Below the pieces are notes generated by a model. It was not told the origin of the DNA. It did no database searches and saw only the letters and a list, made by a program, of their open reading frames with translations. Below are positions 54,503-54,635 of a DNA stretch of 64,000 bases, in pieces. Made by a program: the position numbers and the translations under genes. The stretch is taken from the NCBI RefSeq assembly GCF_058153355.1, contig NZ_CM177019.1. One strand, given 5' to 3'. The stretch's first letter is position 1. Every line of letters starts with the position of its first letter.

Positions 54503-54635
54503 GATGCTCTCCCAAATATGAAATCTCTTGCTGGCATTACAAGAATCATGCCAAAAATAATCTATTGATTTAACTGCAAAACGCCCCGCGACGGTGCGCA
54601 GGGCGTGGTGAATTTGACTACTTTTTGGTGAAAAG

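Follow-up and report, generated by a model that had tools for sequence, protein, structure and literature searches.

The pspG control region of an Escherichia coli genome: a known PspF/sigma-54-dependent promoter, its conserved -12 T and its compact layout

IHF-assisted sigma-54 promoters of the generic kind, exemplified by glnHp2 and the nifH type, are built as an enhancer, an IHF bend site and then a -24/-12 element. The gene pspG, formerly named yjbO, has a promoter (pspGp) in Escherichia coli K-12 MG1655 for which Lloyd et al. 2004 (J Biol Chem) is reportedly the source, with Green and Darwin 2004 said to be a primary mapping paper alongside it. The pspG promoter resembles the generic promoters in its layout and in forming a closed complex that needs an AAA+ activator (PMC3709507). 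The activator, PspF, has no sensory domain; PspA regulates it in trans. IHF has a role in Psp enhancer looping (PMC3709507).

Several published datasets bear on the pspG promoter. ChIP-seq in K-12 identified a sigma-54 site at pspG (b4050; site OS40, FAT 15) that reads, letter for letter, TTGGCATGATTCTTGTA (Bonocora et al. 2015, PMC4591121). The OS40 entry is marked ‘C’, denoting a promoter experimentally confirmed in EcoCyc, and its predicted start lies 25 nt before the gene (PMC4591121). Among genes with upstream intergenic sites, only five were raised by sigma-54 overexpression; pspG is one of them, and PspF was credited with the effect (PMC4591121). In vitro, genomic SELEX placed a sigma-54 holoenzyme peak in the dusA>pspG spacer (PMC8743547), and an 88-nt pspG probe incubated with sigma-54 and PspF(1-275) yielded open complexes and abortive transcripts (PMC4641871). 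PspF is reported to bind the UASs of pspA and pspG (PMC3709507). When the pspG promoter region is deleted, PspF dynamics and basal pspA expression change (PMC3709507); the deleted PpspG region is given as 226 bp in the Mehta 2013 supplement, and Engl 2009 offers no detail on the promoter. Beyond E. coli, sigma-54 was found bound upstream of pspG at TGGCATGATTTTTGTAAG in Salmonella (PMC3844500) and at TTGGCACGTTTCTTGTAA in Yersinia pseudotuberculosis (PMC7657599). Both of these mapped sites (Salmonella Typhimurium STM4244 and Y. pseudotuberculosis YPK_3857) have GT at -12, and dusA lies upstream of pspG in the genomes examined from relatives of these two systems.

The E. coli pspA promoter is PspF-dependent, like that of pspG, and offers a second point of comparison. 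It shares the -24/-12 core, including the GT at -12 (TTGGCACGCAAATTGTA), and the two promoters have been described as having ‘identical -12 and -24 elements’ (PMC4641871). An IHF-like AATCAA sits just upstream of the pspA -24 element (AATCAAAAAGATA), in a place similar to the pspG site. The pspA enhancer contains two TTCRCYA motifs 20 bp apart, as at pspG, and is recognised by a matrix derived from pspG sites. In other respects the promoters differ. The enhancer centres lie 74 and 94 bp from the GG of the -24 element at pspA and 61 bp at pspG. At pspA, the enhancer lies across the promoter of the divergently transcribed pspF; at pspG, it borders the end of a gene read in the same direction and encloses a probable terminator hairpin. 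The pspA promoter is described as having two UASs and ~100-fold induction, and that of pspG one UAS and ~20-fold induction (PMC3709507).

We analysed a 64,000-nt stretch of DNA, referred to here as the window, with positions counted from its first letter (Table 1). By direct reading of the minus strand, dusA ends in a TAA at 54638..54636, the pspG ATG is at 54502..54500, and the spacer between the genes (54635..54503) is 133 nt long. We set the dusA start at 55673 because K-12 dusA is annotated as 1038 nt long; in the mechanical ORF list the frame reaches as far as a TTG at 55679. A 601-nt query around the promoter matched pspG and dusA in 5,425 of 5,426 complete E. coli genomes, and the encoded PspG is 100% identical to E. 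coli PspG entries (80 aa).

Locus, gene order and spacer length are the same as for pspGp of K-12 MG1655, and 132 of the 133 spacer positions are identical. The sole difference, A54575 (T in K-12), falls between the hairpin tail and the IHF site; every control element of the pspG region is thus identical in sequence to its K-12 counterpart. One synonymous codon change in dusA (GCA/GCG at 54648) also separates this region from K-12. For two segments of the window (54200..54800 and 17700..18100), identity to almost every one of the 5,426 complete E. coli genomes is only 95-99%, and records at least 99% identical number 16 for the first and 2 for the second; these comparisons suggest an uncommon E. 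coli lineage as the source of the window. An AT-rich ORF of 334 aa (56035..57039, minus strand), situated about 350 nt upstream of dusA, has a low-complexity product rich in Asn, Lys and Asp, and its composition looks foreign to the neighbourhood.

Table 1. Features of the dusA-pspG region in the window, with mean conservation over 74 aligned stop-to-ATG regions
Feature	Position	Strand	Basis or remark	Mean conservation (bits/column)
dusA (tRNA-dihydrouridine synthase A) CDS	54636..55673	-	ORF; annotated dusA in E. coli genomes	
Post-stop/enhancer block	54632..54604	-		1.50
Distal TTCACCA, predicted PspF half-site	54632..54626	-	Starts 3 nt past dusA stop; 20 bp further upstream than the enhancer motif	
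Predicted PspF UAS (enhancer) GTAGTCAAATTCACCACG, imperfect inverted repeat	54621..54604	-	Conservation, matrix	
GC-rich hairpin and TTTT	54605..54578	-	Folding, covariation	
Hairpin loop	about 54596..54591	-		0.30
IHF-type site AATCAATAGATTA	54570..54558	-	Predicted; perfect match to consensus WATCAANNNNTTR	1.25
Sigma-54 -24/-12 element TTGGCATGATTCTTGTA	54554..54538	-	Same as K-12 OS40; matrix 15.36 bits	1.69
5'UTR, -12 to SD	54535..54516	-		0.51
Predicted transcription start (+1)	54527	-	25 nt before ATG; uncertain by 1-2 nt	
SD to ATG	54515..54500	-		1.35
pspG Shine-Dalgarno GGGAGAG	54507..54513	-	Direct read; conserved in alignment	
pspG CDS (small membrane protein)	54260..54502	-	80 aa and stop; ORF, annotation	

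A preliminary description of this DNA had proposed a sigma-54-like element on the minus strand at 54553..54539, about 35-50 nt before the pspG ATG and inside a 133-nt interval that begins at the dusA stop. TGGCATGATTCTTGT is read exactly there, the distances from its ends to the first base of the ATG are 51 and 37 nt, and the interval is the spacer as described. The statement that the promoter directly abuts the dusA stop has to be divided: it is correct for the enhancer block, which begins 3 nt past the stop, and incorrect for the promoter, whose -24 element begins 81 nt past it. Adding one base on each side of this 15-mer gives TTGGCATGATTCTTGTA, the 17-mer of K-12 site OS40, and the two promoters also agree in a predicted start 25 nt before the ATG. 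The GG doublet of the -24 element is at 54552/54551. The -12 dinucleotide, G54540/T54539, does read GT and not GC as first noted. The PspF/sigma-54 dependence of pspG, which the preliminary description gave as known, is backed by identity with the K-12 site and by the published sigma-54 ChIP-seq and PspF(1-275) open complexes.

By itself a loose IUPAC pattern (TGGCAYN5TTGYW) is not significant here: it matches once in the window with 0.45 matches expected, and 39 of 100 shuffled sequences also matched. We therefore used a log-odds matrix, built from the 135 sigma-54 ChIP-seq motifs of Bonocora et al. 2015 (PMC4591121) with pspG removed, which leaves 134 sites. Under this leave-one-out matrix the pspG element scores 15.36 bits, the third best of ~128,000 window positions and higher than 92 of the 134 true sites. 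At the two positions of its GG doublet, 129 and 133 of the 134 reference sites have G, the distance from GG to -12 is exactly 10 bp, and G54540 is present, with the following C replaced by T54539. A motif that arose by chance and has no function would fit the frequency of the loose pattern and the missing -12 C. We nonetheless consider a chance resemblance vanishingly improbable: at the score of the pspG element, matches by chance are expected 0.40 times per window and 3.6e-4 times in the spacer on the pspG strand, its sequence is that of a site bound in ChIP-seq and marked as confirmed in EcoCyc, and the element recurs at the same location in 79 of 80 species, next to a 5'UTR that drifts. Within E. 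coli, a 30-mer across the promoter is found exactly in 4,577 genomes.

Other matches to the sigma-54 matrix occur elsewhere in the window. GTGGCATAAAAGATGCA (18986..19002, plus strand, 16.1 bits) is identical to the published fdhF site OS41 (PMC4591121), so the fdhF sigma-54 promoter is in the window as well. Further matches lie at 17895..17911 (plus strand, 16.9 bits, inside mdtP), 46657..46673 (plus strand, 15.2 bits, inside uvrA) and 172..188 (minus strand, 15.1 bits). None of these three is in the high-stringency ChIP-seq tables of PMC4591121, and ~0.4 matches per window at or above 15.4 bits are expected by chance; they could be intragenic sigma-54 sites like those of PMC4591121, or chance matches.

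The transcription start was placed by the convention of PMC4591121, 19 nt downstream of the motif centre, which takes the centre at 54546 to a predicted start at 54527.

We compared 80 pspG loci from different species, which were retrieved with a PspG protein query and are thus unbiased as to the promoter. The best matrix match upstream of pspG is a homologous TTGGCAYG-N5-TTGNA element in 79 of the 80. The exception is Citrobacter werkmanii, in which the -24 GG has become GT (TTGTCATGTTTCTTGTA, 7.0 bits). In this genome (C. werkmanii NBRC 105721, L026:1150-1180) the enhancer, hairpin and IHF site are intact despite the change; either the promoter is a natural down variant or the sequence is in error. 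Wherever a locus extends far enough, dusA is immediately upstream of pspG.

In the 74 Enterobacteriaceae loci where both distances could be measured and a site was called, the dusA stop is 79-84 nt from the sigma-54 motif, and the promoter-to-ATG distance varies between 24 and 59 nt. We aligned 74 distinct stop-to-ATG regions and expressed conservation as mean bits per column (Table 1). The resulting footprint has the enhancer, the IHF core, the -24/-12 element and the Shine-Dalgarno sequence standing well above the neutral 5'UTR. In Salmonella enterica arizonae (L015:1140-1190) and diarizonae (L032:1140-1190), an insertion of ~34 nt lies in the pspG 5'UTR between promoter and Shine-Dalgarno sequence; it is a GC-rich palindrome (…GACCCGGTAAGCGC…GCCGGGC…) that is REP-like in appearance.

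Across the 80 species, with C. werkmanii scored at its homologous site, the base at -12 is T in 75, A in 3, G in 1 and C in 1. The only C belongs to Salmonella diarizonae (L032), whose element, TTGGCATGGTTTTTGCT, scores 20.4 bits. The reference sites have the opposite composition: C is found at this position in 125 of the 134 and T in 3, pspA being one of the three, and a T costs 3.3 bits in the matrix. In the list of PMC4591121, the bound sites with this same departure from the consensus are pspA, ygeW and OA06. Since genuine binding sites show it too, we regard the -12 feature as degenerate here and not as failed. The -12 of pspA also lacks C in the three species with binding data (GT in E. 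coli and Salmonella, GA in Yersinia). The GT had been taken in the preliminary description as a ground for caution; it is instead a conserved trait of Psp promoters and no weakness. The -12 T may be a selected signature of these promoters rather than a defect.

The preliminary description had pointed to the 3' end of dusA as the place to find a PspF UAS and an IHF site. Candidates for both are present, and they lie within the spacer, downstream of the dusA stop and ahead of the -24 element. The candidate enhancer, centred on GTAGTCAAATTCACCACG, is ~86 bp upstream of the predicted start and forms the most conserved upstream block in the 74 aligned species. Its inverted repeat is clearer elsewhere, in the family consensus TGGTCAAATTCACCA, in Brenneria (GTTAGTC-N5-GACTAAC) and in Yersinia (GTCAA-T-TTGAC). 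A matrix made solely from 32 non-Escherichia pspG sites gives the window site 26.2 bits, and the next best site in the 64 kb scores 13.6. Applied to the 3-kb K-12 pspF-pspA locus, the same matrix has its top match at 1412..1429 (14.0 bits, 0.015 expected) and a further match at 1432..1449 (5.7 bits). Relative to the predicted pspA start, both lie at about -127 to -90, in the intergenic enhancer region. It is because of this independent cross-match that we call the window site a predicted PspF UAS, of a type related to the pspA UAS.

Upstream of this site is another TTCACCA, and the arrangement TTCRCYA-N13-TTCRCYA occurs once in the window and in 0 of 100 shuffled sequences. The K-12 pspF-pspA enhancer likewise contains it once, as do 53 of the 80 pspG loci at the homologous position. 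The enhancer matrix gives 9.0 bits for the right half of the distal site and -17.7 bits for the site as a whole. A second full palindromic PspF site over the dusA stop codon was accordingly rejected; since only the right half fits, we call the distal TTCACCA a probable additional half-site. One UAS is counted at pspG in PMC3709507. The pspG enhancer may even so be bipartite, as at pspA, with a full site and a half-site 20 bp away.

Between this enhancer and the promoter lies a predicted IHF site, AATCAATAGATTA, with its TCAA core 16 bp from the -24 GG. A match to WATCAANNNNTTR has a chance of ~1.5e-5 per position with equal base frequencies. The CA...TTA columns of the core are invariant or nearly so in the 74 species; a strict IHF regular expression misses many Enterobacter and Klebsiella loci, where the alignment nevertheless retains the core CAA-N4-TTA.

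The distances between these elements follow a simple rule. In the Enterobacteriaceae (74 sequences), the enhancer centre is 61-63 bp from the GG, the IHF core is 16-18 bp from the GG, and enhancer and IHF site are 45-46 bp apart. The corresponding values are 83, 27 and 56 bp in Yersinia and Rahnella, against 61 and 16 bp for the first two in the window, and 69-71, 26 and 43-45 bp in Brenneria and Biostraticola. Each segment thus takes one value or that value plus ~11 bp, held to within 1-2 bp. Steps of ~11 bp, about one helical turn, are what a face-of-helix constraint on an IHF-bent enhancer loop predicts. Enhancer, terminator of the upstream gene, IHF bend site and -24/-12 element together fit into 110 bp. 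Compared with generic sigma-54 enhancer promoters the region is very compact, with everything inside the 133-nt spacer and the IHF core as close as 16 bp to the GG.

We also identified a GC-rich hairpin between the enhancer and the IHF site. It has a stem of 9 bp (54605..54597 paired with 54590..54582), a loop of 6 nt and a TTTT at 54581..54578 that is followed by G, and it overlaps the enhancer-site window by 2 nt. The RNA folds at -23.3 kcal/mol (z -3.8), and none of 200 shuffles was as stable. In the alignment of 74 species, 94.4% of cells pair, compared with 39-54% in slid controls. Compensatory double changes occur in 8 of the 9 pairs (67 double-change cells against 15.6 in shuffles), and the T-run columns are at least 90% conserved. 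A simple terminator scan did not call the hairpin, because its tail has only 4 T and the rule asks for at least 5 T in 8. The hairpin as a member of a curated RNA family was rejected: an Rfam search returned nothing in the spacer, the hairpin included, and only sub-threshold matches on the downstream terminator. A search of the literature for a dusA terminator, 3'-end data included, found none.

The palindrome could alternatively be a protein-binding site or part of the PspF enhancer. It does lie in a region that an activator is expected to contact and loop, and it overlaps the enhancer window. Its sequence is free to change while its pairing is kept and its loop is barely conserved, which is typical of an RNA stem and not of a site for a protein, and a conserved T-run follows it. 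Brenneria and Biostraticola also lack the palindrome but retain enhancer, IHF site and promoter, and the hairpin is thus separable from enhancer function; in Yersinia and Rahnella it is present (about -19 kcal/mol). We consider the protein-site interpretation quite unlikely. Covariation, an unconserved loop and a conserved T-run indicate an RNA structure, which is probably the intrinsic terminator of dusA. Such a terminator would keep dusA read-through out of pspG. The hairpin is probably nested in the enhancer-to-promoter loop, in which case dusA transcription must cross the PspF-bound enhancer before terminating.

A further hairpin with T/A-run flanks, AGGGCTTCCACCTGGGAAGCCCT (54102..54124, both strands), lies between the convergent pspG/pspH and qorA and looks like a bidirectional terminator; its Rfam matches are sub-threshold and to ctRNA_p42d only. 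The sRNA PspH is encoded just downstream of pspG (54093..54203, minus strand), with 100% identity to the K-12 sequence across the whole annotated length. PspH (b4758 in the K-12 annotation) is a sponge of the sRNA Spf and derives from the pspG 3'UTR, possibly with its own promoter. Given this origin, the sigma-54 promoter of pspG may also feed PspH.

It is conceivable that the sigma-54 site is poised or non-productive, with pspG owing its transcription to dusA read-through or to a sigma-70 promoter so far unrecognised. Many E. coli sigma-54 sites may never fire (Bonocora et al., PMC4591121), dusA is co-oriented and only 133 nt away, and the short T-tail of the hairpin makes some read-through plausible. 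This account is highly improbable in light of the expression and in vitro data: pspG was one of the five genes that rose on sigma-54 overexpression (PMC4591121), and PspF(1-275) drives open complexes at pspG (PMC4641871). Next to the site are also a conserved enhancer and IHF site, spaced in helical phase, and a covarying hairpin and T-run stand between dusA and the promoter. A promoter scan found no sigma-70-like promoter on the minus strand between 54100 and 55000. Even with their chances added, the functionless motif, the non-productive site and the protein-binding palindrome are improbable.

We conclude, with a probability of about 97%, that the region is the complete and already characterised enhancer-dependent sigma-54 control region of pspG. 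Identity with the K-12 site, sigma-54 binding, PspF dependence and the conservation of every element, whether seen in the window or reported in the cited papers, carry this conclusion.

Together, these elements suggest the following course of events. Sigma-54 RNA polymerase would bind TTGGCATGATTCTTGTA, with GG at -25/-24 and GT at -13/-12, in a closed complex that does not start unaided. PspF would bind the inverted-repeat enhancer ~86 bp upstream, probably helped by the half-site 20 bp further up. IHF bound to AATCAATAGATTA would bend the DNA such that the PspF hexamer contacts sigma-54, and ATP use by PspF would then open the promoter. Transcription would begin near 54527, ~25 nt before the pspG ATG. 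In unstressed cells PspA keeps PspF inactive, and membrane stress frees it. The hairpin and T-run would end dusA transcripts inside the loop, the same DNA serving as the looping spacer.

The pspG promoter is already known and is an ordinary feature. The small additions made here, which were undescribed in the literature searched, are the conservation of T at -12, a probable terminator nested in the loop, the distal half-site and spacing in quantised steps. Taken together, a selected -12 T signature, a dusA terminator nested in the enhancer loop and a bipartite pspG enhancer, all of them undescribed, make up a reading that is less likely than not, though a real possibility. If the -12 T is a selected signature, it could tune closed-complex stability or basal leakiness at promoters whose activator is regulated only in trans, and it offers a possible handle for studying how the -12 sequence relates to the basal activity of sigma-54 promoters. 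A terminator nested in the loop, if confirmed, could couple dusA and pspG. The importance of these results lies mainly in correct annotation: the window has intact PspF/sigma-54 control of pspG, and the comparison across species supplies a compact and clearly resolved case of a bacterial promoter that depends on an enhancer.
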